Positions 11,446 to 39,347 of a DNA stretch of 64,000 nt are shown here, piece by piece; the stretch's first letter is position 1; every line of letters begins with the position of its first letter. Made by a program: the position numbers and the translations under genes. Origin of the DNA: SAR324 cluster bacterium REDSEA-S27_B3. GTDB lineage: Bacteria; SAR324; NAC60-12. Where the stretch lies: the NCBI GenBank assembly GCA_001627865.1, contig LUQO01000013.1, positions 44,714 through 108,713 on the forward strand. Direction: 5' to 3'. Below the pieces are notes generated by a model. The model worked only from the letters and a program-made list of their open reading frames with translations. It did not search any database and was not told the origin of the DNA.

Positions 11446-11503
11446 AAATAAACCTTATGATAAAAGTAAAACGTGAGGTAAAACAAACCGTAAATGATTT
11501 AAT

Positions 11504-21769: not shown

Positions 21770-22321
21770 CTATAGTAAGTTGACCATAAAACCATGTGCT
21801 TCTAAACTGCCTTCGTTTTTTAAGTGATGTGGAAGGTCTGTGTGGTAACGCAATGTTTCTCCAGCACAAATTGACTGTAATTCATCACCAATTTTGACTG
21901 TCAGATTTCCGGAACAGAGAGTAATACTTTCCAGGCTTCCCTTTCCATGTGATTCTGAATCAAGTTCAGCGCTGGGCTCCGCGTTAAATTCGTACCACTG
22001 CACAGAAGAAACAGTGTCTAGTGTGCCCAGAATTCTCAGCCGGAATCCATTGTCTTCACTTGTCACCTCCGGAGTGGCGTTCCTGCTTAGTTTTTCAAAG
22101 CAGGTTGTTCCTCCTTTAACAGCGAGAACATTTTCCAGAGGACTTTCAAGTGCTTTGGTGATTCGCCAGATTGTGGCTAAAGTCGGATTACTGAGATCTC
22201 GTTCAATCTGTGAGAGAATTGATTTTGATACTCCTGATTTAGCAGCAAGTTGATCAAGAGTAAAATTGTGCTCCTGTCTCAGACGCTGAATTTCCTGGCC
22301 GACTTTAGGTGGTGATTCCAT
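21770..22321 (-). CDS. XRE-family HTH transcriptional regulator with C-terminal cupin domain
   Basis: HTH_XRE segment LDQLAAKSGVSKSILSQIERD plus cupin-like C-terminus. Start trimmed to internal Met (MESPPKVGQ) because the N-terminal extension of the track ORF is low-complexity and overlaps a promoter-like site. Confidence 0.6.
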   Translation of the reverse strand: MESPPKVGQEIQRLRQEHNFTLDQLAAKSGVSKSILSQIERDLSNPTLATIWRITKALESPLENVLAVKGGTTCFEKLSRNATPEVTSEDNGFRLRILGTLDTVSSVQWYEFNAEPSAELDSESHGKGSLESITLCSGNLTVKIGDELQSICAGETLRYHTDLPHHLKNEGSLEAHGFMVNLL

Positions 22322-22409
22322 TTCTGCATTACTTGTTTGATTTTCCTGATAATATAAGCGTAACAGATAATACTTGAAAAGTTTACTCAATAGATTTAAA
22401 AGGAAATGT

Positions 22410-22438
22410 TTTGACAAAATAGAAAGTCCTAGCTATTG
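22410..22438 (+). promoter_or_regulatory. Sigma70-like promoter candidate upstream of tusA / sHdr operon (TTGACA-17 bp-TATTGT)
   Basis: TTGACA at 22410-22415, 17-bp spacer, TATTGT at 22433-22438, ~100 nt upstream of tusA ATG. In the divergent intergenic region shared with the XRE-cupin regulator. Confidence 0.3.
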
Positions 22439-22534
22439 TTAACGGTTATGTGATTACATCAAAAAGGGACACTTTTTTCTACAAAAGGAAATCCCATACC
22501 ATGTTTGGCGTCTCAACCCTTTAAGGTAATAGCT

Positions 22535-22771
22535 ATGAGCGACGTTACGTTTGATTCTGAACTTGATTGCAGGGGCCTGAACTGCCCGCTGCCCATCCTC
22601 AAAACTAAGAAAGCTGTTGATAAACTTCCTTCAGGGCAGATTTTGAAAATGATGGCCACAGACCCCGGCTCGGTAAGTGATGTTACATCATGGGTAAAAC
22701 GGACAGGAAATGAATTGCTCACACATACAGAACAGGACGGTGAACATTCTTTCTTTATTCGCAAGCAGTAA
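22535..22771 (+). CDS. tusA: TusA-family sulfur-carrier protein
   Basis: CPxP motif GLNCPLPI. 79 aa from ATG 22535 (MSDVTF). Confidence 0.75.
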   Translation: MSDVTFDSELDCRGLNCPLPILKTKKAVDKLPSGQILKMMATDPGSVSDVTSWVKRTGNELLTHTEQDGEHSFFIRKQ

Positions 22772-23028
22772 CCATCCAGGTATCCAGGATTCAAGACATA
22801 AAAACCCCTCAGGATAATCTAAATATAAGCATTGAATTATCAAGGGGACAGGATTGGTATGCAGTTTTTTCCTGCGCTTATCTTATCATGTGTGTAGGGA
22901 CTGCAAGATGGGAATAGTTAAAGTGCCTGGAAAATGATCAGGGTACCGAATGATTTTACAGAAATCAAACTTACTGTGTTTGAGCTGTTGATCTTGTAAT
23001 TATCCGCAAAACAAACAAAAAATGAAGA

Positions 23029-23403
23029 ATGGCTGATGAAGAAAAAATGACTGTGTTCGTGACTTCAGGTCCGGAAACTCCACAGCGGTGTGCGACACCG
23101 TTTTACATGGCTAACATTGCTGCAGCCATGGATAATGAGGCGGAAATGATCTTTCAAATCGATGGAGTGCTGCTGATGAAGAAAGGTATCGCGGAAAATC
23201 TTATGGCCAAGGAAGGAGGAAAACCGATTATTGACTTCATCCGTGAAGCCAAGGAGGCAGGAGTCGAGATGCGGGTTTGTTCTGCTGCGCTGCAGCTTCA
23301 CGAAATGACCGAGGATGATTTGATAGAGGAGTGCGACGGTGTGGTCGGCGCGGCTTACATGGTAGATGTAGGAATGGAAAGCGGAATAGTTCTTAACTAC
23401 TGA
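23029..23403 (+). CDS. dsrE3: DsrE/DsrF-family sulfurtransferase (DsrE3-type)
   Basis: DsrE-fold protein with conserved Cys region RVCSAAL; positioned between tusA and lbpA2 as in sHdr clusters. Confidence 0.7.
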   Translation: MADEEKMTVFVTSGPETPQRCATPFYMANIAAAMDNEAEMIFQIDGVLLMKKGIAENLMAKEGGKPIIDFIREAKEAGVEMRVCSAALQLHEMTEDDLIEECDGVVGAAYMVDVGMESGIVLNY

Positions 23404-23417
23404 CTGCGGAGAGTTGT

Positions 23418-23879
23418 ATGACCGAAATCAACAGCTGCCTGCTTCCGGATGAGTTGCAGTATCACATCGAGTTCAACGTCTGGCTCAAGGATAATGGAGA
23501 TGGAACATTTGATCTCGGCATGACCGACATCGCCCAGTCAATGGCGGGTTCAGTAATCCACTGCCGAGCAAAAGCGGTGGGCAAGAATGTCAAAAAAGGA
23601 AAAAGTGTTGCTACAGTGGAAAGCGGCAAATGGGTTGGTCCGGTCAAAACTCCCCTGACTGCGGAAATCATTGCCTGCAACGAAAGCATTGAAGCTGATG
23701 CTACCATCCTTAACAAAAGTCCCTACAAACAGGGCTGGATCGTACGACTCAAGCCCACCAACTTAGACGAGGAACAAGGCGAACTGGTTTCCGGAGACGC
23801 AGCAGTGGAGGGATTCAGAGGCTACATGGCCGAGAAGGAGTTCTCAAGTTGTATCCATTGTGAAGGCTTTGACAGTTAG
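23418..23879 (+). CDS. lbpA: GcvH-like lipoate-binding protein (LbpA-type, copy 2)
   Basis: Lipoyl-lysine motif TVESGKWVGPV aligned to GcvH ESVKA; ~150 aa. Immediately upstream of shdrC1. Confidence 0.7.
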   Translation: MTEINSCLLPDELQYHIEFNVWLKDNGDGTFDLGMTDIAQSMAGSVIHCRAKAVGKNVKKGKSVATVESGKWVGPVKTPLTAEIIACNESIEADATILNKSPYKQGWIVRLKPTNLDEEQGELVSGDAAVEGFRGYMAEKEFSSCIHCEGFDS

Positions 23880-23913
23880 CATCAGGAAATGATCATCAAG
23901 GAACTGACTTAGC

Positions 23914-24642
23914 ATGTCCATCTATGCTGACGCAAAATACAGTGAAGTACCTGTGGAAACAAAACAGGCACTGTTTGATGAAGTCAAAGCCGATATGCGC
24001 TATGAACACCAGCTTTACGGCTGTTACGAATGCGGTATATGTGTTGCTGCCTGTCCCTCGGCACGCTTCTATGATTTCAGTCCGCGGGTATTTGCTCAGG
24101 TCATGGCCCGTGAGGATGTTGATACATTTTACGAACTGTTAAATGACAGTGTCTGGGACTGCTCTCAGTGCTTTTCATGTACACGTTGTCCTAGGCAGAA
24201 CAATCCGGGTGCTGTCATCACCATTATGCGCGAGGTAGCGGTTAATCACGGTCTACAGTCCGCCAAGGAGGCGCTCAAGTCTTACAGCCGCATCATCTAC
24301 AAGATCATGTCCACCGGTACCCAGGTGGCACCTGACATGCTGCAGCCTGATTTCTTTCCGGATTGGGGTCCAGACGTAAAGCAGGTGTCTGAGAACCTCG
24401 ATGTATGGCGCAGGTGTGTTCCTCCGGAAACGATGCACACCACGGAACTGGCGTGGGACGTCAGCGAAAAAACCCGACTCGAGCTTTACATGATATGGAA
24501 ACTCACCGGCAACCTGGAAATGATCGAAAAAATCGATGAAGGTATCTTCATGATCCTCGAGGAGGTGATGGAGGAACTGCTGGAAGAGAATGGATACGAC
24601 ATTGACGATTTTGAGAACCTGCTTGAGGAGGACGAAGAATGA
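23914..24642 (+). CDS. shdrC1: HdrC-like iron-sulfur protein (sHdrC1)
   Basis: Two ferredoxin-type cysteine clusters (CYECGICVAACP, CSQCFSCTRCP). Confidence 0.75.
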   Translation: MSIYADAKYSEVPVETKQALFDEVKADMRYEHQLYGCYECGICVAACPSARFYDFSPRVFAQVMAREDVDTFYELLNDSVWDCSQCFSCTRCPRQNNPGAVITIMREVAVNHGLQSAKEALKSYSRIIYKIMSTGTQVAPDMLQPDFFPDWGPDVKQVSENLDVWRRCVPPETMHTTELAWDVSEKTRLELYMIWKLTGNLEMIEKIDEGIFMILEEVMEELLEENGYDIDDFENLLEEDEE

Positions 24643-24699
24643 TTTCAAATGCCTTAATTCAAAAATCAAAAACGGTTTCATCAAAATAAAGGAGATACT

Positions 24700-25902
24700 A
24701 TGCAGCAGACTTCCGCAGATAAGGTCTTTAACCCGCCAACGCTTTCATCTCGTGAATTCAAACGGGATAATCCTCCACCCACTGAGGATTACCGGGAGAA
24801 GCTATTCGAGTTGGAGAAGGCCGGTGAACTTGAAGTCCAAAGGGTTCCGGAGCCTTATGTGGAATTGGAAACCAAATACGGGAGAATCAAGAAAATACCC
24901 TATCAGATGACCTGGCATCACAAGTCATGCGGCCAATGCGGTCACATTCCGGGATACTCTACAGCCATTTTCTGGTTAAACCGGAAGCTCGGATTCGACT
25001 ACCATGACCCTCGTGATCAGACTTCCTGCACAGCCTGGAATTACTATGCGTCTTCAACATCTAACTCTGCGGCTCAGGCCGGTATCGCGGTGCGGAATTT
25101 TTCCCAGGCTAAAATCGACGGATACTTCCCAGTTATCCATTGCGGAACGAGTTACGGACATTACAAGGAAACCCGGGAGCAGCTACTACACTATCCTGTT
25201 CTGCGCAGGCAGGTGCGCAAGATTATGGACCGCCTCAAGATGCCCTTTGTGTTTCCCGAGGAAATTGTGCATTACTCGGAATGGGTGCACGCTATGCGAG
25301 ACCGGATTGCGGAGATGCAGGTACTCGATCTCAGTAATGTAACCGTCACCGTCCACCCGGCCTGCCATTACCATAAGCTGGTAGTTGAAGACGCTGTCTA
25401 TGATCGGGATCTTTTCGACGGGCAGCGGACGGCTGTCATCAGCGGACTGGTCGAGGCTCTGGGGGCCAGGGTGGGAGACTACTCAACCTGGCATGACTGC
25501 TGTGGTTTTGGGTTCCGGCACATTTTAGTCAGCCGAGACTTTTCCCGTTCATTCGCTACTACAAGAAAGATTGAGCGTATGAAAGAGGAAGTAAATCCAG
25601 ATGTTACCCTTACACATGATACCGGTTGTGTAACTACATTGGACAAAAGCCAATTTGCCGCTCAGGCTCATAAACGCAACGTAGGTATTCCAGTGATGTC
25701 TGACGCCCAGTTTGCGGCTCTGGCTATGGGTGCACATCCATACATTGTCTGTCAGCTTCACTGGCATGGTGTCGATATGAAACCTCTACTTGAAAAAATG
25801 GGAATTGATCATAAAAAGGCATGGGCCGAGTTCGAAGTCCAGGCAGAAAGAATTAAAGCCGGTGAAATCGAATATATAAGCTGGGAGGAAGCAGATGCCT
25901 GA
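24700..25902 (+). CDS. shdrB1: HdrB-like protein with CCG domains (sHdrB1)
   Basis: Cysteine-rich CCG-type motifs including WHDCCGFGF; ~400 aa. Confidence 0.75.
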   Translation: MQQTSADKVFNPPTLSSREFKRDNPPPTEDYREKLFELEKAGELEVQRVPEPYVELETKYGRIKKIPYQMTWHHKSCGQCGHIPGYSTAIFWLNRKLGFDYHDPRDQTSCTAWNYYASSTSNSAAQAGIAVRNFSQAKIDGYFPVIHCGTSYGHYKETREQLLHYPVLRRQVRKIMDRLKMPFVFPEEIVHYSEWVHAMRDRIAEMQVLDLSNVTVTVHPACHYHKLVVEDAVYDRDLFDGQRTAVISGLVEALGARVGDYSTWHDCCGFGFRHILVSRDFSRSFATTRKIERMKEEVNPDVTLTHDTGCVTTLDKSQFAAQAHKRNVGIPVMSDAQFAALAMGAHPYIVCQLHWHGVDMKPLLEKMGIDHKKAWAEFEVQAERIKAGEIEYISWEEADA

Positions 25903-26953
25903 AAATCCTGTACTGGTGATTGGAGGAGGACCGGCAGGTCTCGAAGCCGCCCGAGGGGTGGCAGACCTGGGCTATCATGTTAAACTTGTTGAAAAGGCCG
26001 AGCGACTGGGAGGAATGCCGATCCTTGCGGATTATGCTGCACTAACGCCGAACATGGTGAATGCTGAGGAAGCTATGGGAGAGATGGTCCAGCGCATCGA
26101 AAATGATGAGCTGATCGATATTCGGACTTCCACGGAAGTGATCCGGGCCTCCGGTTCTGCCCCTGCTCTCGAGATTGGTTTGAATGGGCCTGGAGGAGAG
26201 GAGGATATTCAGACTGGTGGAGTTATCGTGGCAACAGGATTCCAGCATTTCGATCCAGGCAAGGAAACACAGATGTACGGGTATTACGAATTTGACGACG
26301 TGATCACCCTCGTTGATACCGAAAGGATGCTCAAAGCAGGAAAATTCGTGAGACCCTCAACCGGAGAAGCGCCGAAACAGGTTTGCTTCATTCAGTGTGT
26401 TGGCAGCCGTGACCGTCAGATCGGTAACCCGTGGTGCTCAAAAGTCTGTTGCGGAATCGCCACAAAGGAAGCCATTGAAATTCGTCAACTGATACCTGAT
26501 TGTAGAGTGTTCATCTTCTACATTGACATGCGTATGTATGGGTTCTGGGAAGATGAAATCTACTGGAAAGCCCAGGAGAAATACAAGGTGAACTTCATCC
26601 GCGGGATTGTTACCGAGATCACCAAGCGTGGTGATCAGGTAGTGGTCAAGGGGGAGGATACGACCATGGGAAGACCGGTAGAGGTGCCTATGGACGTGGT
26701 CATTCTTTCTATTGGAATGGAGCCCAGCGAGGGGACGAAGAAGATGGGAGAACTGTTTCAACTGCCGTCGACCCATGGTTTCATAGAAAGCATCGGTGGA
26801 GCTTTAAACACAGTAGTAACAAGCGTACCGGGAATATTTGTAGCGGGTGCTGCAGCCGGTCCGGCGGACCTGGAGGACTCTGTTTCCATGGGTGGCGCAG
26901 CAGCGATGAAGGCGGCTGCCTTTCTTCGAAAGGCCAACCTGCGGGTTGCGTAA
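25895..26953 (+). CDS. shdrA: HdrA-like FAD/4Fe-4S flavoprotein (sHdrA)
   Basis: FAD Rossmann motif VIGGGPAGLEAA and HdrA signature CFIQCVGSRDRQIGNPWCSKVCC. Confidence 0.8.
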   Translation: MPENPVLVIGGGPAGLEAARGVADLGYHVKLVEKAERLGGMPILADYAALTPNMVNAEEAMGEMVQRIENDELIDIRTSTEVIRASGSAPALEIGLNGPGGEEDIQTGGVIVATGFQHFDPGKETQMYGYYEFDDVITLVDTERMLKAGKFVRPSTGEAPKQVCFIQCVGSRDRQIGNPWCSKVCCGIATKEAIEIRQLIPDCRVFIFYIDMRMYGFWEDEIYWKAQEKYKVNFIRGIVTEITKRGDQVVVKGEDTTMGRPVEVPMDVVILSIGMEPSEGTKKMGELFQLPSTHGFIESIGGALNTVVTSVPGIFVAGAAAGPADLEDSVSMGGAAAMKAAAFLRKANLRVA

Positions 26954-27705
26954 TGCTTTTTGATTCGCTGACGCTTGAAGAAGTCGTCGATTCCGAATCA
27001 GCCCTGGAATTCATGAAGGAAGCCACAAAGCTGGCCAGTTCTGCTGACCTGGAGGACCTCTCCGAGCGGGTTTCGCTCAAGGCGGAATGCTTCAATAAGT
27101 ATCTGAACCCGACAAGCGTGGAAGAACTGAAGGAGGAGCAGTTTGACCAGATCGTTCGTTTGATTTTTTCAATAGGACGCAAATCGAAGCGCCTGATCGC
27201 TGCCAACGGGTTCGAAAACCTTCGCGTCAGGATCAGTGAGCTACTGCATGGTGATGCACCTGTTGAGGAGCGCTTCAACGTTTTTGTCAAAGGTGTTGAA
27301 GGTGTTGAGGAAAAAATGCGGATTAACTTTGCCGGAGAACTGCTACATTTCTCAATGCCTGAGCGTTACTGGCTCTGGACAAACTGGATCTGGGATCCAG
27401 ATAACAACACGGGAGCTCTGCCATTGGTGGTTCAGGAGGAAGTTGATTTGCTTGGAGACACTCAGGGTGAGACGTATCTGAGGGTAGGCAAGGCGATGGC
27501 TTACGTGAACAAGGTTGGAAACGAGCGAGGTTATTCCCGAGTGGGTCATGGAACTTATGGGATCGATGTCTTCTTGGCCTGTGTTTACGCAGTGTACATG
27601 TACACGGTTTTCAGAGTAAAGCTGTCTGATGAATTCAACCGAATTCTTCCGGAACTGCCTGAACTGACGCGCCGCGTGCTTGGAGTGCAAAAATTAGAAT
27701 TGTAA
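26953..27705 (+). CDS. Hypothetical protein of the sHdr operon (sHdrH position)
   Basis: 250-aa ORF between hdrA-like and fused hdrC/B-like gene, translationally coupled (ATG overlaps upstream stop). Confidence 0.5.
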   Translation: MLFDSLTLEEVVDSESALEFMKEATKLASSADLEDLSERVSLKAECFNKYLNPTSVEELKEEQFDQIVRLIFSIGRKSKRLIAANGFENLRVRISELLHGDAPVEERFNVFVKGVEGVEEKMRINFAGELLHFSMPERYWLWTNWIWDPDNNTGALPLVVQEEVDLLGDTQGETYLRVGKAMAYVNKVGNERGYSRVGHGTYGIDVFLACVYAVYMYTVFRVKLSDEFNRILPELPELTRRVLGVQKLEL

Positions 27706-27708
27706 GTT

Positions 27709-28995
27709 ATGTCTGAACACAAATACGAAAAGTTTACGGAGAAGGAAGAGGCAGTTGTAGAGGGGATTGATATTTCCGGAATCTGGAACAGGATGTATGA
27801 GCCTCGGGAGCTTACGGAATATGATCTGACTTACATGGATAAGGTCACAGAAACTCCGGGCGCCGAATCGATGGGATGGTGCTATCAATGCGCCCAGTGT
27901 GTGGGTGTCTGCCCGGTGGATCATGTAGGCAGTTATGGCCCGCGTAAGCTTTTCCGTAAGCTTCAGACTGGGACTAACCTATTCGAAAGCGATGATCTCT
28001 GGCTATGCACAACCTGCATGAACTGCCTACGTGTTTGTCCGAAGGAAGTTGACATGATGAAGATCATGCCTGCTGTCCGGGAACAGGTTGTGCTCGAAGG
28101 AACCCTTCCGGGTGAACTCCAGGAAATGCTCCAGAACGTGTCCGAGTACGGAAACCCGATGGGCGAATCACCACGCAAGCGAGTGCGCTGGACAAAGGAC
28201 CTTGAGCAACCACCGAGAGATCTGTCGAAGGAAGACGGTTCAGAGTCGGTGGAGGTGCTTTGGTATGTCAGTGATTACTACGCCTACCACGGCCGTGGTC
28301 AGGACGCTGCGCGTGCTTTGACCCGGGTATTTAATCGTCTGGAAGTGGATTTCGGTATACTGGGTACTCTGGAAAAATGCGATGGTGATTCCCAGCGTCT
28401 TGTTGGTGAAACTGGACTGTTTGAGGAATTGGCCCAGCACAACGATGAACAATTTCAAAAATACAAACACGGCACCCTCGTTGTCACTGATCCGCACGCG
28501 TTTAACGCCTTCAAAAATCATTATCCGAAAGTGACAGGCAACGAATACCGGGTCGTGCATTACACACAGTACCTGAGCAATAGGCTGAAGGAACTTAAAC
28601 CACTGCTGGTTAAGCCTTACGAGAAAAAACTGACGTTTCATGATCCTTGCTACCTTGGCCGTCACAATGGTGAATATCAGGCACCGCGCGATCTGGTTGT
28701 CGCGATTCCCGGTGCGGAATTTATGGAGATGTACCGCTGCCGGGAACAGAGCTACTGCTGCGGAGGCGGAGGAGGGGGGATGTGGCTTGACGGGGTATCA
28801 GCAGATCACACTCGTGAACGCCTGTCGGAAAACCGTGTCCGTGAAGCCGTAGAAATCGGAGCTGAGGTACTAGTTGTTTGCTGTCCTTATGAGGTGTCCC
28901 GCTTCGAGGATGCAGTAAAATCAACAGACAATGAGGGAAAACTTGAAGTTCGTGACATTGCTGAAATCCTGGATTACTGTATGGATGGGGTTTAG
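27709..28995 (+). CDS. Fused HdrC/HdrB (HdrD-like) iron-sulfur CCG-domain protein (sHdrB3-type of type II sHdr clusters)
   Basis: N-terminal 2x[4Fe-4S] motifs (CYQCAQCVGVCP, CTTCMNCLRVCP) followed by CCG domains (CYLGRHNG..., CCGGGGGGMWL). Confidence 0.7.
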   Translation: MSEHKYEKFTEKEEAVVEGIDISGIWNRMYEPRELTEYDLTYMDKVTETPGAESMGWCYQCAQCVGVCPVDHVGSYGPRKLFRKLQTGTNLFESDDLWLCTTCMNCLRVCPKEVDMMKIMPAVREQVVLEGTLPGELQEMLQNVSEYGNPMGESPRKRVRWTKDLEQPPRDLSKEDGSESVEVLWYVSDYYAYHGRGQDAARALTRVFNRLEVDFGILGTLEKCDGDSQRLVGETGLFEELAQHNDEQFQKYKHGTLVVTDPHAFNAFKNHYPKVTGNEYRVVHYTQYLSNRLKELKPLLVKPYEKKLTFHDPCYLGRHNGEYQAPRDLVVAIPGAEFMEMYRCREQSYCCGGGGGGMWLDGVSADHTRERLSENRVREAVEIGAEVLVVCCPYEVSRFEDAVKSTDNEGKLEVRDIAEILDYCMDGV

Positions 28996-29001
28996 GACAA
29001 A

Positions 29002-29679
29002 GTGCACAGACTGATAAAGTTTGTAGAAAACCCCCTTCTGAACAAACATCTGGAGCGTCAGGCTACTAGTCTGGAAATGGGATTTCTGGATCCATCATCG
29101 GAAGACTTTGAGGAAGCCCCTCAAATAATTGTCGCTGAACTGGAACACTCTCAAGCAATAAACAGGATCATTGACTGGAAGCGTCGCTGGCCGGAATGTT
29201 ATGTGGCCTTATCCGTCAGTGAGCTGGATAGAGAACGATGGATTGCAGCAGAAAGTGCTGGTGCGGATCTGGTAGCCAACCGTGGAGCTTTGCCACGGCT
29301 ATTGCGTGACAAGATGAAACTGCTTCAGCAGGGAGATTCACTGACGAAACAAAAGCTGAGGTTAAAGGCCAAGGCTGTTGTCAATTCTGGTGACGGTTTG
29401 GTAGGACGGCTTCCTGATTCACCGGAAGATCCGATTGCGGTGTTTCGTATGGGAAACCAACTCTGTGCCGTCCGGGATGTTTGTCCGCATGCAGGGTTTT
29501 CTCTTGCGGACGGAGTGTTTGATCCGGTTTCAGGTAGCATTACCTGTCCAGAGCACGGCAGCCGCTTCCAGGTATGTACCGGAGAAAGACTGCGGGGACC
29601 GGCGGATTATCCCTTGAGGATCTATCCGGCATTAAGTGAGCAGGAAGAGATCTGGGTGGAAATTGAACAGGAAGCATGA
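29002..29679 (+). CDS. Two-domain protein with C-terminal Rieske [2Fe-2S] domain
   Basis: Rieske boxes CPHAG...(17 aa)...CPEHGSRF in the last ~100 aa. The ~120-aa N-terminal domain has no recognisable family. Co-directional and 6 nt after the shdrB3 stop. Confidence 0.6.
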   Translation: MHRLIKFVENPLLNKHLERQATSLEMGFLDPSSEDFEEAPQIIVAELEHSQAINRIIDWKRRWPECYVALSVSELDRERWIAAESAGADLVANRGALPRLLRDKMKLLQQGDSLTKQKLRLKAKAVVNSGDGLVGRLPDSPEDPIAVFRMGNQLCAVRDVCPHAGFSLADGVFDPVSGSITCPEHGSRFQVCTGERLRGPADYPLRIYPALSEQEEIWVEIEQEA

Positions 29680-29956
29680 TGAAACTTCCTGAAACAAAAA
29701 ACATGGTGCATGAAATGGGAACAATCCAGCTCAGTATTCAAATGATCCTTGAAGACTGCGGGATGGGGATTCCATTGAACTGGACTTGGCAGGCGTGCAA
29801 AATAGTGAACACAGTTCGTTCATCAAAGCAGTTTGCATCCCTGAGTCGAGCCGAACTTAAAGGCCTGGGGCAGCTCTTCAGGAAACGTATTGTTGCAGAT
29901 AGTTTTCGAAGGAGAAGAGAAACATTTTTATGCAAATGGAACTTGATAAGGTACAT

Positions 29957-30700
29957 ATGAAAGTTGCAGTTCTACTGAAACAGGTGCCTGACCTGGCTGA
30001 GGAACTTGAGGTCGATGAAAGTGGCAAGGCTTTGGATACGGAATACATCAAATTTCGGCTGAACGAGTATGACGAGCATGCTCTTGAAGAGGCAGTATGT
30101 CTCAAGGAGGCCGGTCAGGCTACGGAGATTGTTGCTTTTGCGCTTGATGGTGAAGAGGTGGACAAAGCGCTGTTTTCCGCCATGGCAAAAGGTGCAGACA
30201 AAGCGGTCAAGCTTACCGGACCAGAAGTTGAAGGGAGCAGACAGGCAGCAGCTCTTTTTGCAGAAACCTTGGGTATGGATTATGACCTGATCATGACCGG
30301 AGTGCAGTCGGTGGACGATCGTGATGGTATGATGGGGCCCATGCTTTCCTCGATGCTCAAGGTTCCATGCGTCAGTGTTGTCACCCGAGTCGAGGGCAAG
30401 GAATCCAGCGTGACTGTCCATAAGGAATATTTCGGAGGTTTGATGGCTGCCTTTGATGTACAACTTCCGGCAGTACTCGGGATCCAGGCTGCAAGACAAA
30501 CTCCGCGTTATGCACCTGTGAGCAAGGTTCGTCAGATTCAGCAATCTGCCATCATTGAGGAAAAATCTGCCAGCGGGGTTTCGGGCTCGGCCACAAGCAA
30601 GGTGACTACCATGGCACCACCGACCAAAACCGGAGGGGCAAAGATACTAGGTTCAGTTGATGAGCTGATGGAATTACTGAAGAAAAAAGGGGTCGCATGA
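29957..30700 (+). CDS. etfB: Electron transfer flavoprotein beta subunit
   Basis: MKVAVLLKQVPD N-terminus typical of EtfB. Start set at internal ATG 29957 with AAGG RBS. Confidence 0.8.
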   Translation: MKVAVLLKQVPDLAEELEVDESGKALDTEYIKFRLNEYDEHALEEAVCLKEAGQATEIVAFALDGEEVDKALFSAMAKGADKAVKLTGPEVEGSRQAAALFAETLGMDYDLIMTGVQSVDDRDGMMGPMLSSMLKVPCVSVVTRVEGKESSVTVHKEYFGGLMAAFDVQLPAVLGIQAARQTPRYAPVSKVRQIQQSAIIEEKSASGVSGSATSKVTTMAPPTKTGGAKILGSVDELMELLKKKGVA

Positions 30701-30734
30701 AAAAAATCAAATTCATACACAAAAAGGGTTAAAC

Positions 30735-31670
30735 ATGGGAAACGTACTGGTAATTACAGAACATATGAAAGGTGAGTTTCAGGACATTAGTTTTGAGATG
30801 TTGGGACAGGCTCGCAAACTGTCCACCGGAGGTAGTTGCAGTGCACTCGTGTATGGATCGATGAAGGATCGCTCATCAGAACTTGGCGCTGCTGACCGTG
30901 TACTTTGTGTTGGAGGAAGTGATGATTTTAATCCTGAAACTTATGCCAGTGCCGCACTTCAAATAATACAATCCGAATTCCCTGATCTTGTTTTGGTGGG
31001 ATCGACTTCTATGGGGATAGATCTCGCTCCAGTATTGGGAGTCTCGCTTGACCTTCCTATAATTTCCTATTGTTCCTGCATTGAAATTTCAGGTGACAAC
31101 TTCGAATTCACGAGCCAGCTTTATTCAGGCAAGATGGATGTCAAGTCGACTGCGCCGAAAGCAGTGGCAATGGTGCTGGCAGGATCCTTTTCTGCTGAGG
31201 ATGGAAAATCAGGTGGTTCTGCAAGTGTTGAGAATGTGACAGCAGACTTTGGAGTCGGAAGAGTGCAGTTCAAGGAACTGATCGAACCCGAAGCTGCCGA
31301 AGTGGACATTACCCAGAGCGACATCTTAGTTGCGGTTGGTCGTGGAATCGGTGGCAAAGACGACATCGAAGTGGCACAGGAACTGGCTAAAAACCTTAAC
31401 GCAGATCTGGCCTGTTCAAGACCTGTTGTTGATGCGGGATGGTTGCCCAAATCCTGTCAGGTCGGTAAGTCTGGACTTAAGGTAAACCCTAAAGTATACA
31501 TTGCCCTCGGAATCTCAGGTGCTCCGGAACACCTTGAAGGGATGAAGGATGTCTCAACCATCATTGCAATCAACACTGATAAGAATGCTCCGATTTTTGA
31601 TGTTGCTCATTACGGAATGACGGGAGACCTCTTTGACATCTGTGAAGAACTGGAGGATTCTCTTTCCTAG
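30735..31670 (+). CDS. etfA: Electron transfer flavoprotein alpha subunit
   Basis: EtfA FAD-binding C-terminal motifs (VGRGIG, SRPVVDAGW, IALGISGAPEHLEGM). Confidence 0.8.
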   Translation: MGNVLVITEHMKGEFQDISFEMLGQARKLSTGGSCSALVYGSMKDRSSELGAADRVLCVGGSDDFNPETYASAALQIIQSEFPDLVLVGSTSMGIDLAPVLGVSLDLPIISYCSCIEISGDNFEFTSQLYSGKMDVKSTAPKAVAMVLAGSFSAEDGKSGGSASVENVTADFGVGRVQFKELIEPEAAEVDITQSDILVAVGRGIGGKDDIEVAQELAKNLNADLACSRPVVDAGWLPKSCQVGKSGLKVNPKVYIALGISGAPEHLEGMKDVSTIIAINTDKNAPIFDVAHYGMTGDLFDICEELEDSLS

Positions 31671-31714
31671 TACAAAATCATGTGAATTTCCTGAATCCTT
31701 GACTCAAAGGAAGC

Positions 31715-33742
31715 ATGCTCAGTTCAACTGAACAAATTGCCTTCGTTCTTCTGGTGCTGGTCTGTGGGGGGGTGGCGTTCCAGGGTTTTAGGAGAATCTT
31801 TGTTATTGTTTCTCAGGGAAAGCCTTCTTACCGGACCGATGAGTTTCTATCGAGGCTGATCAAGGCCCTCATCGAGGTTGGTCTGCAGAAACCGCTCTTC
31901 AAGTCCCGACCGATTGTCAGTCTTTTCCACGCCTTCATCTTTTTTGGATTCAGTTTCTACTTGCTGGTCAATTTCAATGACCTGCTGGAGGCCTACGTCT
32001 CGGGGTGGACTACCATCGATAGCTCCCATCCTGTGGCGTTGGGATTTAATCTTTTTTCCGATCTGTTCAGTATCCTGGTTTTGATAGGAATAATTTATTT
32101 CCTCATTCGTCGTTTCATAGGCAAGCCCAGGGTTTTTGAATTCAATAGAAACGTCAAACTACAGACTAAAGTAGTGGGAGGAGGGATTCGTAGGGATTCT
32201 CTGATCGTTGGGATCTTCATCATCCTCCATGTTGGATCACGTTGGTTGGGGACTGCTTTTCATTTGGCGGAGCGGGAAACTACAGAATGGTCTTTACCCA
32301 CGGCAAGCTTGGTGGCACCGTTATTTTTTGGCTGGAGCGGTTTGGAAACAGGAATCCATGTCACCTGGTGGCTTGCAATGGGCTTGATTGTCTTTTTCCT
32401 TCCTTATTTTCCAAGAAGCAAACACATTCACATTTTCCTGGCTCCTCTGAATCTTGCTTTTACCAATCGTGAGGCCAAAGGCAAACTTCTTGACCCAGTG
32501 GATGGGTCCAATCCTGGTGCGGCAACCCTGGATGAACTTCCCTGGAAACAAGTCTTTGATTCCTATGCCTGCATCATGTGCACACGCTGCCATGAGGTCT
32601 GCCCTGCGCATCAGTCTGGGACGCCATTGAGTCCTTCCGCACTGGAAATCAATAAACGTTATTTTATCAACCAGCATGTTTCCGGATTGGCAAAAGGAAG
32701 TACCAAACTGGATTTGCTGAAGGATGCAATTTCAGAAGACGCGGTCTGGTCCTGCACCACCTGTATGGCCTGTGTGGAAGTCTGTCCGGTTGGCAATGAA
32801 CCGATGCAGGACATTCTCCAGATCCGCCGGAAACTGGTATTCGATGCACGGATGCCGGATGAACTTTCGGACGCCCTTCGCAGCCTTGATGAACAGGGTA
32901 ATTCTTTTGGAGAGTCCTCACGAAAACGTACACGCTGGACCAGGGAACTGAACTTCGAGATAAAAGATGCTTCCAAGGAATCGGTGGAATACCTCTGGTT
33001 TGTTGGCGATTTTGCATCCTTCAACCAGAATTGTGTGGAAAATACAAGAAGGGTGGCAGAGGTTCTCAATGAGGCTGGTGTTGATTTCGGAATCCTCATG
33101 AAAGAAGAGAAATCGGCTGGAAACGATGCCCGTAGGGTTGGAGAGGAAGGTCTGTTTGATGCGCTCGCGGAAGAGAACATCAAGACCCTCGAGAATTGTG
33201 ATTTCCAGCATATCCTGACTACTGATCCTCATACCTATAATACTCTGTTAAACGAGTATCCTTCAAAGGGTGGAGTTTATTCGGTGAAGCATTATTCAAC
33301 GCTGCTGCTGGAACTGATTCTATCGGGGAGGATCAAAATCATCAAACCTCTCAAAATCAAAGGCACCTATCATGACCCCTGTTACCTTGGACGATACAAT
33401 GGAATATTCGATGCCCCGCGTGAAGTGATGCAGCATTGTGGAGTTGAACTCCTTGAGATGCCCCGAAACCGAATCAATTCCTTCTGTTGTGGTGCAGGCG
33501 GAGGACAGGTCTGGTTAAAGGAACATGAGGAAATGAAGCAACGTCCCAGTGAAAATCGGATTGAGGAGGCCCTTCTACTCAATGTCGAATATTTCACTGT
33601 AGCATGTCCCAAAGATATGACTATGTATTCTGATGCCGTCAAGACCTCTGGTAACGAAGAGAAGATGGTAGTACGTGATTTGATTGACTATGTCTTTGAA
33701 GCAATGGATCTGCCGGAAGACTCAAGAAAATCAATCGAGTAA
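31715..33742 (+). CDS. Membrane-anchored HdrD/DsrK-like FeS oxidoreductase (Etf:quinone oxidoreductase EMO-like; N-terminal HdrE/NarI-like TM domain)
   Basis: 5-6 N-terminal TM helices with conserved His, then 2x[4Fe-4S] (CIMCTRCHEVCP, CTTCMACVEVCP) and CCG domains (CYLGRYNG, CCGAGGGQVWL). Confidence 0.7.
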   Translation: MLSSTEQIAFVLLVLVCGGVAFQGFRRIFVIVSQGKPSYRTDEFLSRLIKALIEVGLQKPLFKSRPIVSLFHAFIFFGFSFYLLVNFNDLLEAYVSGWTTIDSSHPVALGFNLFSDLFSILVLIGIIYFLIRRFIGKPRVFEFNRNVKLQTKVVGGGIRRDSLIVGIFIILHVGSRWLGTAFHLAERETTEWSLPTASLVAPLFFGWSGLETGIHVTWWLAMGLIVFFLPYFPRSKHIHIFLAPLNLAFTNREAKGKLLDPVDGSNPGAATLDELPWKQVFDSYACIMCTRCHEVCPAHQSGTPLSPSALEINKRYFINQHVSGLAKGSTKLDLLKDAISEDAVWSCTTCMACVEVCPVGNEPMQDILQIRRKLVFDARMPDELSDALRSLDEQGNSFGESSRKRTRWTRELNFEIKDASKESVEYLWFVGDFASFNQNCVENTRRVAEVLNEAGVDFGILMKEEKSAGNDARRVGEEGLFDALAEENIKTLENCDFQHILTTDPHTYNTLLNEYPSKGGVYSVKHYSTLLLELILSGRIKIIKPLKIKGTYHDPCYLGRYNGIFDAPREVMQHCGVELLEMPRNRINSFCCGAGGGQVWLKEHEEMKQRPSENRIEEALLLNVEYFTVACPKDMTMYSDAVKTSGNEEKMVVRDLIDYVFEAMDLPEDSRKSIE

Positions 33743-33880
33743 AAAAGGATTAAGACTTTTCTATAAATTGGCTTGATAAAATCAGCTACTCTGATAAAAA
33801 TATCACTATCTTTAAATGTTTTTGTTTCTAACAATTGAGCTAAATAAAGTACTTGAGTGAACTAAAGTAAAGAAAAGGTA

Positions 33881-35086
33881 ATGTTATTAGATACAACTGC
33901 AGAGGAGCCTTACAGCATAAAAGCGGCTTTCTGCAACGGCTATGAAAGGCTGTTCGATCGGCAATGGCCTATCTGGATTGGAGGGTTACTACTGGGAATG
34001 GGGAATGTGCTCCTGTTTGCCTTTGATAGACCCTGGACCGTCTCAAACGGTGTGAGAAACTGGGGTGACTGGTTTTTCAACCAAATCGGTGTAATTCAGA
34101 TGAATGTCCTTCCTCCAACTCTTTTTACCAGTTCAGTACTGTGTTTCGGAATGATCATCGGATCACTGGTGGCAGCATTGCTTGGCAGGCAGTTCCGGGT
34201 TCGTATGGCGCCAGCCAGGGAATTGTTCAAGGGGCTGCTCGGCGGAGTACTGATGGGAATCGGGGCTTCCCTCGCTTTCGGCTGCAATATAGGAGGTTTT
34301 TTTAGTGCAATCAGCGCACTGTCAATGGCAGGCGTGGTCATGATGGTCGGATTGATGGTAGGAGCATTTGTCGGGTTGAAACTGCTCATCTGGGAGATAG
34401 AGTATCTCCCAGCAACTTCCTGGGGGGTGCGACAAGTACCGAACAGGGATGACATGTCGGGTGTACCGAGTAGAGCCCAGCCAATTTCAGGGTTATTGGT
34501 TTTGCTGCTGTGTATCATTGTGATCTTCACTTACGATTCCTTTGATTATTCCGTAAGCGGCGGATTTATGCTCTTTGGACTGCTTGTAGGCATCGTCATG
34601 CAGCGTACACGCTTCTGCTTTGTAAGGGCTTTCAGAGACCCTTTCATGACGGGTGATGCGGAAGCTACTAAAGCAGTTGCACTTGCGGTCATCATCAGCG
34701 TAACCGGGTTCACAATCCTGAAATGGACGGATTTGAGGTCCTGGGATGTTTCTGTATTACCAGGTTTTTGGATTGGCAGTCTGATGGGTGGTATCATCTT
34801 CGGGATTGGAATGTCCCTTAGTGGTGGTTGTGCATCGGGTACTATCTGGCGGGCTGGAGAGGGACAGGTTAAACTCTGGGTCACACTTGTCACGTTTGCA
34901 CTGAGTACGTCCTACTTCAGGGACTGGCTAGTTGCTAGTGGATTGAGGGCTAAACTTGGAACTGAGCTTTTTTTGCCTGATGTTATTGGTTGGAAGATGG
35001 CACTAATCATCATTATTGCCATAATGTTATTTTGGTACTTGATGGCAGTTTGGAATGAAGTCAGCAAAAAATTGGTGGTGGTATAA
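33881..35086 (+). CDS. YeeE/YedE-family membrane protein (putative thiosulfate/sulfur-compound transporter)
   Basis: Two-repeat polytopic protein with conserved GCNIGG and GGCASG cysteine motifs typical of YeeE/YedE (TsuA-like). Confidence 0.7.
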   Translation: MLLDTTAEEPYSIKAAFCNGYERLFDRQWPIWIGGLLLGMGNVLLFAFDRPWTVSNGVRNWGDWFFNQIGVIQMNVLPPTLFTSSVLCFGMIIGSLVAALLGRQFRVRMAPARELFKGLLGGVLMGIGASLAFGCNIGGFFSAISALSMAGVVMMVGLMVGAFVGLKLLIWEIEYLPATSWGVRQVPNRDDMSGVPSRAQPISGLLVLLLCIIVIFTYDSFDYSVSGGFMLFGLLVGIVMQRTRFCFVRAFRDPFMTGDAEATKAVALAVIISVTGFTILKWTDLRSWDVSVLPGFWIGSLMGGIIFGIGMSLSGGCASGTIWRAGEGQVKLWVTLVTFALSTSYFRDWLVASGLRAKLGTELFLPDVIGWKMALIIIIAIMLFWYLMAVWNEVSKKLVVV

Positions 35087-35320: not shown

Positions 35321-36625
35321 ATGAAAAATAATTCAATTCTATTGGTAGCATTTGCGTTCTTAGCTGGAATAATTTCAGGATGTGTAACTACTGGCGGAGC
35401 AAAATTTGGAGCACCATCAAAAGGCATGAGTCCTGCGGAATATGAGTCTTTGGTTAGGCTGGACCCACAGAATACAATGAAGGCAAATTTTTCTGTAGTT
35501 AAAGGAATGGATGGATATTTCCTTATTGATAACCAAGGTGAAAGTACTATTTCGGTTGTAGACTATAATAAAGGGGAGACAATCAAAAAAATTAAGTTAA
35601 GTGACCCTCCTGGCACCTCTTTTAAACCCGCAGGGAATCATCACATTTTTGTAATTCCTGGCGGAAGATATGCTTGGTCTTCGCAGCGATATGAAAAAGA
35701 TGTAATGTGGACTATAGATTTAACAACCCATGAGGTAGTTGATACTTTCAGATTAAGTATGGGAGGTAAAACAATAAAAGCACCCTTGCATATTGGATTT
35801 GCATACAAATCCCCTTTGGCGGTAACAGGTAATATCTTAGATAAAAAAAATGGATATCTTACTTTTTTGAGAACCGACACTCGCCGTCCTTCCCACATAG
35901 TTGATCTGAGTTGTTCAGGAGCTAGGGACGCAATGTTCACATTCGATGACTCAAAAGTTTTTACTACTTGCCAGCAGGAACCAAAGGGGGCTTCGATTGT
36001 TGACGTAAGTGGAAGAAAAGAAATCAAATTTATTCCTATAAAGGGAGGGAGAGCTGGAGGAATGACTCCCGACGGGAAATATTTTCTAGTTGGAGCCTCA
36101 AAGGCAGTTGTCCTAATTGATACTGCTACAAATGAAATTCACAAAACCATCAAAGTTCCTGGTGGTGGAGGTAATTTCACTTGTCTTCCAGATGGATCAA
36201 AGTGCTATGCAGGTTTAAGGAAAGACAATTCAGTCGGAGTAATTGATATGGCGAGTCTTGAACTGATTAAAGTCATAAAAACCGGTAAAAACGGTAACCG
36301 ACTCTACTTAAATCCTGCAAATCCCAGATACGGAATTTTTACTAATGAATCTGGTAAATCGGAAACTGTATCTGTAATTGATACCCAGAATGATGTTAAG
36401 ATCATTGATATAGAGACAGGTCTGAAACCTCATAATGTTGCTTTTAATCCAGAAGGAACACGAGCAATTATTTCAACTCCAAAGGAAGAAGTAGCAACTC
36501 TTGTTGATACATCATCATCAGATCCTACTAAGTGGGAAATAATTACCACAGACATTGATTCGGGTATAGAAAATAACGGCGTGCGCTGGGTACCTAGTCC
36601 AAGTGCTATAATAGCTGCAATGTAA
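35321..36625 (+). CDS. Lipoprotein with YVTN-type beta-propeller repeats
   Basis: Lipobox LAGIISGC. Repeated ~40-aa units with D/N-x-S-V-I-D motifs. Low GC relative to upstream operon. Confidence 0.5.
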   Translation: MKNNSILLVAFAFLAGIISGCVTTGGAKFGAPSKGMSPAEYESLVRLDPQNTMKANFSVVKGMDGYFLIDNQGESTISVVDYNKGETIKKIKLSDPPGTSFKPAGNHHIFVIPGGRYAWSSQRYEKDVMWTIDLTTHEVVDTFRLSMGGKTIKAPLHIGFAYKSPLAVTGNILDKKNGYLTFLRTDTRRPSHIVDLSCSGARDAMFTFDDSKVFTTCQQEPKGASIVDVSGRKEIKFIPIKGGRAGGMTPDGKYFLVGASKAVVLIDTATNEIHKTIKVPGGGGNFTCLPDGSKCYAGLRKDNSVGVIDMASLELIKVIKTGKNGNRLYLNPANPRYGIFTNESGKSETVSVIDTQNDVKIIDIETGLKPHNVAFNPEGTRAIISTPKEEVATLVDTSSSDPTKWEIITTDIDSGIENNGVRWVPSPSAIIAAM

Positions 36626-36819
36626 GGATTTGAATCTAAAGATGATCAAATAATGCAAATTGCTGCATCAGAGTAGAATAATATAGCTGGTGGTCGAAAT
36701 TTTATAAATAGATTTTTCGGCCACCAATTTTAATGTGTCTTTCTGCTCTAGATAAATTATTTGTTTATTAGCAAATAAAATATTTGCTCTAATTTTAATT
36801 CACAGTCTAGGAGAATTGA

Positions 36820-37287: not shown

Positions 37288-37288
37288 A

Positions 37289-38905: not shown

Positions 38906-38946
38906 ATGAATACCACTGGCTTAAACATTTTAAATCGAGAAGAAGA

Positions 38947-39300: not shown

Positions 39301-39347
39301 AAGCAATTCATTTAGCCATTTGCTAACCAATAAAAAAATAGTTTATC

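Follow-up and report, generated by a model that had tools for sequence, protein, structure and literature searches.

A 64-kb stretch of DNA from SAR324 cluster bacterium REDSEA-S27_B3 (contig LUQO01000013.1, positions 44,714 to 108,713; 64,000 nucleotides [nt], here called the window) carries a gene cluster that appears to encode an sHdr-LbpA sulfur oxidation system together with EtfAB and the membrane protein EMO. Open reading frame (ORF) calls and Pfam/NCBIfam matches place 13 consecutive plus-strand ORFs at 22505-35086, in the order tusA, dsrE-like, lbpA, shdrC1, shdrB1, shdrA, shdrH, shdrB3, Rieske, etfB, etfA, emo, and yeeE. A preliminary description of this DNA had counted 12 co-directional genes with minimal gaps at 22321-35086. 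The shared direction and the gene identities stand, but the count becomes 13 and the start moves downstream, as tusA begins at 22505 or at an ATG at 22535, which is possibly its true start, and positions 22321-22417 belong to a divergent HTH-cupin gene. Most junctions are indeed tight, with anything from an 8-nt overlap to 57 nt between neighbors, but tusA and dsrE are 257 nt apart, Rieske and etfB 277 nt, and emo and yeeE 138 nt. All 13 genes are under purifying selection, with pN/pS against relatives of 0.02-0.4. The features of the cluster are as follows.

22505..22771, plus strand: tusA (PF01206 2.7e-27; active-site motif RGLNCPLP; pN/pS 0.15)
23029..23403, plus strand: DsrE-family sulfurtransferase in the dsrE3 position (PF02635 2e-16; candidate active-site Cys in VCSAALQ)
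23418..23879, plus strand: lbpA, GcvH-like lipoate-binding protein (PF01597 [GCV_H] 6e-35)
23914..24642, plus strand: shdrC1, ferredoxin-like subunit (two CxxCxxCxxxCP motifs; Fer4_8/17; best NCBIfam model HdrC 1e-21, below cut-off)
24700..25902, plus strand: shdrB1, HdrB-like with two CCG-type halves (PF02754; best NCBIfam model HdrB 4e-36, below cut-off)
25895..26953, plus strand: shdrA, FAD/[4Fe-4S] flavoprotein of 352 amino acids (best PDB match 6TJR_A, Hyphomicrobium denitrificans sHdrA)
26953..27705, plus strand: shdrH, conserved hypothetical gene between shdrA and shdrB3 (positional orthologue in 48/50 related loci; pN/pS 0.12-0.20)
27709..28995, plus strand: shdrB3, HdrC-like part (two cubane motifs) fused to an HdrB-like part (Fer4 and CCG; best NCBIfam model TfrB 2e-37, below cut-off)
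29002..29679, plus strand: fusion of a pseudo-receiver and a Rieske ferredoxin, 225 amino acids, GTG start (Rieske 4e-12; begins 6 nt after shdrB3)
29676..29946, plus strand: TusA-like (seleno)protein pseudogene, frameshifted (aligned to intact orthologues at the DNA level; two-frame tblastn)
29957..30700, plus strand: etfB, ETF beta (PF01012 3.6e-21; start MKVAVLLKQ supported by structure alignments)
30735..31670, plus strand: etfA, ETF alpha with FAD-binding domain (ETF_alpha 5e-32; best PDB match 1O94_D 7e-52)
31715..33742, plus strand: emo, EMO-type ETF:quinone oxidoreductase, 675 amino acids (9OJN_A E 3.8e-78, membrane domain included)
33881..35086, plus strand: YeeE/YedE-family membrane protein (PF04143 1e-58, two stretches; motifs GCNIGG and GGCASG)

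Type II sHdr systems are defined operationally by shdrC1B1AHB3 and etfAB in one syntenic cluster, usually with emo after them (PMC11094781; PMC11582611). In the window, shdrC1, shdrB1, shdrA, shdrH, and shdrB3 are consecutive plus-strand ORFs at 23914-28995, and etfB, etfA, and emo lie at 29957-33742. This layout bears out the earlier assignment to type II, and we therefore identify the locus, with good confidence on its gene content, as a type II sHdr-LbpA cluster. Related loci were collected with an sHdrB3 scan of one genome per species, which returned 79 loci (numbered with an L prefix) labelled Marinisomatota, SAR324, marine group II archaea, Acidobacteriota, Calditrichota, Chlorobiales-type, Myxococcota, Bacteroidota, Acidimicrobiia, Planctomycetota, and KSB1. 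Counting loci with enough flanking DNA, etfB, etfA, and emo follow shdrB3 on the same strand in 47 of 47, across about 10 phyla, and shdrA and shdrB1 precede it in 50 of 50. The comparison of gene neighborhoods that the preliminary description had called for thus supports a functional coupling of EtfAB-EMO with sHdr.

The individual subunits are consistent with this assignment. sHdrA aligns with 6TJR_A over residues 4-344 (to 2-340; E 8.9e-91), its match to methanogen HdrA is partial (1e-60), and it carries the motif CVGSRDRQIGNPWCSKVCC with the cluster pattern CxGxRDx7CSxxCC. By length and alignment it is of the short (~350 amino acids) sulfur-oxidizer type and not a 650-amino-acid methanogen HdrA. 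sHdrB1, the proposed catalytic subunit, aligns with methanogen HdrB over both halves, and sHdrC1 is 82-89% identical across phyla. The product of shdrH has no family match in Pfam or NCBIfam. In sHdrB3, the N-terminal CCG half retains one of five Cys, and the C-terminal half has C314, C350/351, and C392/393; the protein is thus predicted to be an HdrC2-HdrB2 fusion able to bind one non-cubane cluster only. sHdrB3 also shares 37% identity (E 1e-81) with the soluble part of EMO, which is its paralogue. The preliminary description had allowed that the CCG/4Fe-4S proteins might belong to unrelated families such as GlpC/LldEF; their best models are instead HdrB, HdrC, and TfrB/HdrD-type, though all fall below the NCBIfam curated cut-offs.

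The sulfur carriers and the lipoate pathway fit the same type. DsrE-family orthologues, 66-93% identical, hold the same position in related loci, with pN/pS of 0.03-0.08. In LbpA, the residue that lines up with the GcvH lipoyl-lysine is Lys70, within VESGKW; the protein scores below the cut-offs of true GcvH equivalogs, and its PDB matches are GcvH only. Genes for lipoate maturation lie 9 kb upstream of the cluster.

9351..13568, plus strand: lipoate-protein ligase-like gene, lipS1, lipS2, and a second LplA-like gene (LplA-B_cat 2e-37)

LipS1 scores 248.9 bits with NF053742, above the cut-off of 230, and LipS2 is the best match of its protein at 196.6 bits, below the cut-off of 270. The window thus holds both an LbpA with a predicted lipoyl-lysine and putative dedicated lipoate maturation genes (sLpl, LipS1, LipS2), as expected for type II.

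Set against published type II clusters (Justice 2014, Cao 2018, Kümpel 2024, and Tanabe 2024, as these are cited in PMC11094781), the window has the same tusA-dsrE-lbpA-shdrC1-B1-A-H-B3-etfB-etfA-emo order, an sHdrB3 with one complete non-cubane site, TusA plus a DsrE3-type transferase, and nearby lipoate maturation genes. It differs in having a pseudo-receiver-Rieske gene and a TusA-like pseudogene between shdrB3 and etfB, yeeE and sox genes directly downstream, an XRE-cupin regulator instead of an ArsR-type sHdrR, and a SAR324-like host. Type I clusters (H. denitrificans and Aquifex aeolicus, shdrC1B1AHC2B2) share sHdrA (6TJR E 8.9e-91), sHdrB1, sHdrC1, sHdrH, LbpA, and the TusA/DsrE relay, whereas in the window the fused sHdrB3 replaces sHdrC2 and sHdrB2, and EtfAB and EMO are added.

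Both ETF subunits have as their best PDB matches the non-bifurcating ETFs 1O94, 1EFP, and 1EFV (Methylophilus, Paracoccus, and human); EtfB aligns with 1O94_C and 1EFP_B from residue 1. The bifurcating ETFs 6FAH, 5OL2, and 4KPU match EtfB with lower scores and EtfA with similar ones. The membrane protein had been called EMO-like in the preliminary description, which is borne out by its full-length homology to the structurally solved ETF:menaquinone oxidoreductase 9OJN. It comprises a NarI-like membrane domain with five hydrophobic stretches (counted by eye), two cubane motifs, and one complete CCG site, and its residues 47-315 align with the 9OJN membrane domain in phmmer.

Residue conservation was counted in an alignment of 52 shdr-linked EMOs from related loci. 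H72 and H239, which correspond to the heme-bP ligands H87 and H251 reported for the Syntrophus aciditrophicus enzyme (bioRxiv 10.64898/2026.08.18.745454), are invariant in 52/52, as are the cubane ligands C286/289/292/296 and C347/350/353/357. C556, C591, C592, and C631 of the remaining non-cubane site are likewise invariant, and the N-terminal CCG half has no cluster-ligand Cys in any of the 52 sequences. Characterized EMOs have two non-cubane clusters (FeS3 and FeS4); one of the two sites is missing here, and the shdr-linked EMOs are, as judged from their ligands, a distinct subtype predicted to hold one non-cubane cluster. A candidate distal-heme His, H215 (HxxWW), is kept in most of the window-like subgroup, while the other subgroup has WWxH five residues later.

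The window EMO resembles the EMOs of Mycobacterium smegmatis and S. aciditrophicus in being a single chain with an N-terminal NarI-like domain, the heme-bP His pair, two cubane clusters, an HdrB-like domain, and etfBA as neighbors. Compared with M. smegmatis EMO (9OJN), the distal non-cubane site FeS4 reads VGD, SA, and DPHT here and VGC, TC, and CPHC there, the remaining site ends in an Asp ligand (CPKD) where M. smegmatis EMO has Cys (CPFC), and the candidate distal-heme His is displaced by five residues relative to the characterized enzymes. The metabolic partners also differ: sHdr for the window EMO, acyl-CoA dehydrogenases for the characterized ones. The window protein likely functions as an EMO, without being strictly identical in type to the characterized enzymes; from its adjacency to etfBA it is predicted to accept electrons from ETF and to reduce (methyl)menaquinone.

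Because etfB-etfA-emo is universally syntenic with shdr and its products are homologous to a structurally characterized EMO-ETF pair, we consider it rather probable that electrons from sHdr leave simply through EtfAB and EMO to quinone. The preliminary description had proposed such a wire from EtfAB through the membrane protein to the quinone pool. Synteny and homology support it; its novelty does not hold, since it restates a published proposal. According to PMC11094781, which cites Kümpel et al. 2024, both the shdrC1B1AHB3-etfAB-emo arrangement and the passage of electrons from EtfAB/EMO to menaquinone have already been put forward, and the finding is therefore correct but not new. For no type II system has the oxidation of sulfane sulfur to sulfite so far been shown in vivo (PMC11094781).

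We turn now to the interval between shdrB3 and etfB. The preliminary description had noted a Rieske protein at this position. The Rieske domain is confirmed, but the protein has two domains, and the gap that separates its gene from etfB holds the frameshifted TusA-like pseudogene. The Rieske ligands C161-P-H163 and C182-P-E-H185 are invariant across 38 family sequences, and an AF2 structure model is confident in both domains (pLDDT 92.3). In Foldseek searches, the C-terminal half matches the CarAc ferredoxin 1VCK (E 1.8e-8; TM 0.84 normalized to the target), while the N-terminal half, with a CheY-like fold, matches the receivers of KdpE, PhoB, and RcsB. The family alignment shows no conserved Asp after beta3 and no DD pair after beta1, and we therefore call this half a pseudo-receiver. 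The protein resembles the Rieske ferredoxins of dioxygenases (CarAc 1VCK, BphF 1FQT) and NirD in fold, in its CxH...CxxH ligands, and in sequence (31-34% identity). Unlike them, it is fused to a CheY-like pseudo-receiver and has no oxygenase or reductase partner nearby.

A hidden Markov model of this family finds members in 12 of the 79 anchored loci, and 9/9 distant members that we looked up (41-50% identity) sit in type II shdr/lbpA/etf/emo clusters. In the window, as in L002, L004, L005, and L016, the gene is part of the structural operon. Elsewhere its place varies: after emo in L082, L088, and L091 and before emo in L090, adjoining an ORF of ~170 amino acids in each; near the cluster end in L087; upstream of tusA in L089; and, in L084, L085, and L092, downstream of an ArsR-type (HTH_5/HTH_20) gene with which it makes up a small operon divergent from tusA. 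We found no description of a Rieske protein with sHdr or LbpA in the searchable literature. The distribution of the family suggests that it is a conserved, dedicated, and apparently undescribed accessory of type II shdr clusters.

As to its role, an electron relay and a redox sensor seem about equally plausible. The protein might stand outside the electron path altogether and instead sense redox state or sulfur so as to modulate a transcription factor, which would be the divergent HTH-cupin protein here and the ArsR-type or 170-amino-acid winged-helix proteins elsewhere. We regard this as a real possibility, if a less than likely one, and it is compatible with an electron exit through EtfAB and EMO. 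In its favor, the N-terminal CheY-like fold lacks the acceptor Asp, as is typical of pseudo-receivers engaged in protein interactions; the gene adjoins ArsR-type genes (L084, L085, L092) or the ~170-amino-acid proteins (L082, L088, L089, L091); and where it sits differs from cluster to cluster, which is not so for the core subunits. Set against this are its place within the structural operon in the window and four related loci, the closest likeness of its Rieske domain to the electron-shuttling ferredoxins of dioxygenases, and the lack of a fused DNA-binding domain.

Two further accessory ORFs occur in type II clusters of other phyla, often beside the Rieske gene. The one of ~170 amino acids, which adjoins the Rieske gene in L089 as well, has a faint winged-helix HTH_24 match in L089 only. 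The other, of ~90 amino acids, is zinc-ribbon-like (CxxC...CPxC, a conserved EIRMVAFDLLLYHL motif, and a faint zf-Di19 match) and lies beside the Rieske gene in L082, L088, and L089. Their sites are L082 9700-10506, L088 9489-10004 and 10684-10956, L089 1668-2479, L087 2325-3092, and ~15.2-15.6 kb in many Acidimicrobiia and Acidobacteriota loci. A search of the window for the winged-helix-like and zinc-ribbon-like genes found neither.

The second element of this interval is the TusA-like remnant. The gene-caller annotation of ORF 29676-29960 as a hypothetical gene of 93-94 amino acids was rejected, as this ORF joins two TusA-like frames by a frameshift. With tblastn, the remnant matches in two frames, at 29715-29801 and 29827-29931 (E 1.9e-8), placing the frameshift between 29801 and 29827. 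The N-terminal third, ...EDCGMGIPLNWTWQACKIVN, reads in one frame, and the rest, FVHQSSLHP-TGA-VEPNLKAWGSSSGNVLLQIVFEGEEKHFYANGT, in the next, with the former selenocysteine (Sec) codon at 29842-29844. An intact version, M..HIETGDCGMGMPVIRSWQAMKKLSIGNILQLTSSHP-TGA-AVPDMEAWCRSTGQKLLNI.EDGQTRHFFVQKMK, lies between shdrB3 and etfB in 11 related loci; the gene was located in that interval as follows.

L003, 11333-11539, plus strand: TusA-like TGA gene
L004, ~12560-12800: TusA-like TGA gene
L007, ~11325-11565: TusA-like TGA gene
L027, ~5225-5450: TusA-like TGA gene
L009, L010, L011, L013, L014, L015, L038, and L054: TusA-like TGA gene

The TGA falls at the same codon in 11/11 loci, and L027 carries the same gene with an in-frame stop at that place. 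The peptide continues in frame past the TGA in a conserved manner (...SSHP-TGA-AVPD..AWCRS..., then ...AWCRSxGxKLL...HFFVQ). Public entries of the gene are cut exactly at SSHP and labelled hypothetical, are read through with W, or are Cys homologues, of which P0222 and P0223 read SSSHPCAE at the Sec position; full-length database entries carry the TusA Pfam domain. Remnant and intact orthologues share PF01206 and a TusA-type layout with the TusA/YedF (SirA-like) carriers. Relative to TusA, the in-frame TGA replaces the Gly of the DPG motif, and the Cys of the orthologues lies two residues upstream of the canonical CPxP Cys. On this evidence, the intact gene very probably encodes a TusA-family selenoprotein, of which we found no description in the searchable literature.

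A conserved hairpin, GCCUG-GUG-CAGGU, resembling bacterial SECIS elements (selenocysteine insertion sequences) in its placement and loop, lies 21-34 nt past the UGA, with an optional lower stem, and is present in the minimum-free-energy fold of three of five orthologues folded. Its covariation is not above that of shuffled sequences, its z-scores are only about -1.3 to -1.7, and no Rfam family matches, including in the L007 gene. Since its sequence is also constrained by coding and does no better than shuffles, we do not claim a SECIS. The window remnant lacks the downstream Cys, and its hairpin is disrupted. The same frameshifted ORF recurs in the separate assemblies L001 and L081, with an extra indel in L001, and the copies in L002 and L016 have likewise decayed. 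The probable TusA-like selenoprotein gene has thus decayed in the SAR324-like lineage of the window.

Taken together, these two elements lead us to propose, tentatively and with slightly less than even confidence, that type II sHdr has two dedicated, apparently undescribed accessories: a pseudo-receiver-Rieske redox relay or sensor (in SAR324, Marinisomatota, Acidobacteriota, Acidimicrobiia, and others) and a new TusA-family selenoprotein (in Marinisomatota and relatives, and being lost in the SAR324-like lineage). If this is true, a Sec-containing TusA would offer a selenium-assisted persulfide or selenosulfide relay, either feeding sHdr or resolving a reaction intermediate.

Downstream of emo, yeeE joins the shdr cluster to a truncated sox set, which lies directly after yeeE and a beta-propeller gene.

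35321..36625, plus strand: lipoprotein-type beta-propeller protein between yeeE and soxY, signal ending ...GC (weak YncE/beta-propeller matches)
36820..40055, plus strand: truncated sox set of soxY-like, soxB, soxZ, and c-type cytochrome genes (SoxY 4.7e-16, SoxZ 1.6e-15, Cytochrome_CBB3)

SoxB matches TIGR04486 at 1e-123, with 413 bits against a cut-off of 550, and is named YfkN by NCBI; no soxCD genes were found in the window. The YeeE protein falls below the NCBIfam cut-offs of both YedE/FdhT (143 versus 350 bits) and TsuA (116 versus 400 bits) and may therefore belong to another clade. By analogy, it is a candidate importer of thiosulfate or sulfane sulfur. Among the related loci, yeeE stands beside emo in the window lineage only.

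The sHdr-LbpA system would oxidize protein-bound sulfane sulfur to sulfite in the cytoplasm, and the gene content suggests the following sequence of events. The truncated periplasmic Sox system (SoxYZ, SoxB, and cytochrome c) would handle thiosulfate and leave sulfane sulfur, which the YeeE-family protein, if it acts like TsuA and SoxT1A, may carry across the membrane. TusA and the DsrE-type transferase would then pass persulfide sulfur to lipoylated LbpA/sHdr, as their homology with the type I cascade suggests, the LbpA having been lipoylated by the products of the sLpl/LipS1/LipS2 genes 9 kb upstream. Oxidation of the sulfur would fall to sHdrA, sHdrB1, and sHdrC1 with sHdrB3 and sHdrH; the identities of these proteins are well matched, and the chemistry is extrapolated. 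Electrons would run from EtfAB to the non-cubane cluster of EMO, its two cubane clusters, heme b, and finally the quinone pool. The Rieske protein might act as a one-electron relay at ~ -150 mV, or as a redox-sensing partner of the regulators that adjoin it in other phyla.

Several observations weigh against this scheme. The structure of the S. aciditrophicus EMO-ETF complex shows the ETF flavin placed for transfer to the non-cubane clusters (bioRxiv 10.64898/2026.08.18.745454); the distal non-cubane Cys are absent from shdr-linked EMOs, and docking and electron entry may therefore differ. The distal-heme His is also shifted in the EMO subgroup of the window. The part given to the Rieske protein is a guess, as its frequent ArsR or winged-helix neighbors favor regulation as much as electron transfer. 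The importer is doubtful on two counts: the YeeE scores below the TsuA and YedE cut-offs, and SoxT transporters have been reported as completely absent from type II sHdr genomes (Li et al. 2024, PMC11582611). Finally, the gaps of 257, 277, and 138 nt allow internal promoters. A promoter and terminator scan of 21.5-40.5 kb was uninformative on operon structure: it gave 38 promoter-like sites where 30.6 were expected, and terminators fell short of the expected number. The tusA-dsrE gap contains no plus-strand ORF longer than 35 amino acids and no Rfam match, and Rfam applied to the whole window found tRNA-Asn only.

Transcription may be governed by a gene on the opposite strand.

21770..22417, minus strand: HTH-cupin regulator, XRE-type HTH plus cupin (Pfam HTH_3 2e-13, Cupin_2 1.3e-4)

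This gene, which is divergent from the cluster, and tusA have their starts 87 nt apart. On the plus strand, the top-scoring promoter-like site lies at 22411-22439, in a scan that overall did no better than chance. The XRE-cupin protein, which is not an ArsR-type sHdrR, is a candidate for regulating the cluster.

We next weigh other readings of the cluster against an exit through EtfAB and EMO. Electrons could flow in the reverse direction, with EMO and EtfAB feeding quinol electrons to sHdr, or be split at the sHdrA flavin by bifurcation or confurcation, with EtfAB-EMO as the high-potential arm and another branch reducing lipoamide, NAD+, or ferredoxin. This is unlikely in our view, though not without support: sHdrA is homologous to the bifurcating HdrA flavoprotein, the operon encodes a low-potential Rieske-type ferredoxin, the window EMO retains H215 as a subgroup-conserved candidate distal His, and for the S. 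aciditrophicus EMO a reverse redox loop with distal hemes, driven by the proton motive force, has been proposed (bioRxiv 10.64898/2026.08.18.745454). This reading is opposed by the closeness of EtfA and EtfB to the non-bifurcating, AMP-binding ETFs 1O94, 1EFP, and 1EFV, and by the lack of any NAD(P)H- or ferredoxin-linked module in the cluster. Bifurcation was reportedly not favored in a study of H. denitrificans sHdrA.

It is very improbable that the complex is reductive, serving as a heterodisulfide, polysulfide, or DsrC-type reductase in anaerobic sulfur reduction or disproportionation. The Hdr family is ancestrally reductive, and papers on SAR324 have read HdrA as methanogenesis-like (PMC8364033) or grouped hdr with the apr/sat cluster (PMC4782131). 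But sHdrA here is of the short sulfur-oxidizer type; LbpA, LipS1/LipS2, TusA, DsrE, and sox together are the signature of the oxidative pathway (PMC11094781); and no MvhD, hydrogenase, or Qmo partner is present. The suggestion that EtfAB and EMO serve fatty-acid/acyl-CoA oxidation and are merely adjacent to shdr, for which the beta-oxidation role of the characterized EMOs (S. aciditrophicus, M. smegmatis) and the NCBI annotation of the window protein as "putative iron-sulfur-binding oxidoreductase FadF" could be cited, is scarcely credible and was rejected on synteny, given the 47/47 loci in about 10 phyla with etfB-etfA-emo after shdrB3, the absence of acyl-CoA dehydrogenase or other beta-oxidation genes from the 64-kb window, and the distinct one-non-cubane type of the shdr-linked EMOs, with a soluble part paralogous to sHdrB3.

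Few bacterial groups of the dark ocean are as abundant as SAR324, whose sulfur oxidation has so far been explained by Sox together with reverse Dsr/Apr. No paper linking SAR324 with sHdr was found in the searchable literature, and the sHdr of SAR324 appears to have gone unrecognized in the two papers that mention its hdr genes (PMC8364033, PMC4782131). If an exit through EtfAB and EMO is correct, type II sHdr-LbpA with YeeE and soxYBZ would give SAR324 a second way of turning sulfane sulfur into sulfite in the cytoplasm, more economical and wired to the quinone pool. The published type II model is extended and parts of it made testable, not changed; what is new and ecologically important is the host. 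The Rieske-pseudo-receiver protein, the probable TusA-family selenoprotein, and a one-cluster EMO that can be compared with the new EMO-ETF structures offer new handles on the least understood sHdr type.

The host is an uncultured marine bacterium. The closest named relatives of the shdr genes are from SAR324, including a single-cell genome at 92% (shdrB3), but the labels of the relatives are inconsistent. Fully identical proteins bear the label Deltaproteobacteria, those at least 90% identical are labelled SAR324, Arenicellales, and Pseudomonadota, and a contig with a 100% identical shdrB3, and with hdrB1 to yeeE 94-99.6% identical in nucleotides, is labelled Neomarinimicrobiota. Comparing window 22505-35086 with the near-identical L001 contig PAVC01000039, tusA-dsrE-lbpA are 78-84% and hdrB1-yeeE 94-99.6% identical in nucleotides, a mosaic similarity that suggests population recombination or a chimeric assembly. 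Four loci binned as marine group II archaea (L017-L020; Poseidoniaceae, "Methanobacteriota") contain the same cluster, with sHdrB3 69-71% and sHdrC1 82-84% identical to the window; these reflect either a recent inter-domain transfer among pelagic microbes or misbinning. The G+C content is 0.48-0.51 at 10000-14000 and 24000-32000 (lipoate, shdr, and etf genes), ~0.43 over the window, and 0.36-0.37 at 36000-40000 (sox). This contrast, together with the 82-89% identity of HdrC1 across phyla, fits a horizontal spread of the shdr and lip modules.

Several other genes in the window deserve mention. The SoxY-like carrier (36820-37287) has a Tat signal, a C terminus reading ...AAGGC (Cys last, not GGCGG), and a Desulfoferrodoxin-type Pfam match; among NCBIfam models it comes closest to the "SoxY-related AACIE arm" paralogue family, with a score below the cut-off. 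A second 5'-nucleotidase/SoxB-like metallophosphoesterase of 574 amino acids lies at 13824-15548, directly after the lipoate maturation genes. Downstream of SCO1 and sox, a thioredoxin-fold (DUF255/DsbD-like) protein of 544 amino acids (41128-42762) has a weak match to the rhodanese/DsbD-like selenoprotein TsoB (2e-14, far below cut-off). A MoeB/ThiF-type adenylyltransferase gene, followed by one for a 751-amino-acid fusion of a JAB/MPN peptidase with a Cys/Met-metabolism pyridoxal phosphate (PLP) domain (43435-47060), may form a sulfur-carrier-protein route to homocysteine or cysteine. At 51294-61486, five MORN-repeat ORFs and an SBBP beta-propeller ORF, all secreted-looking, stand in a region of strong G+C and A+T skew.

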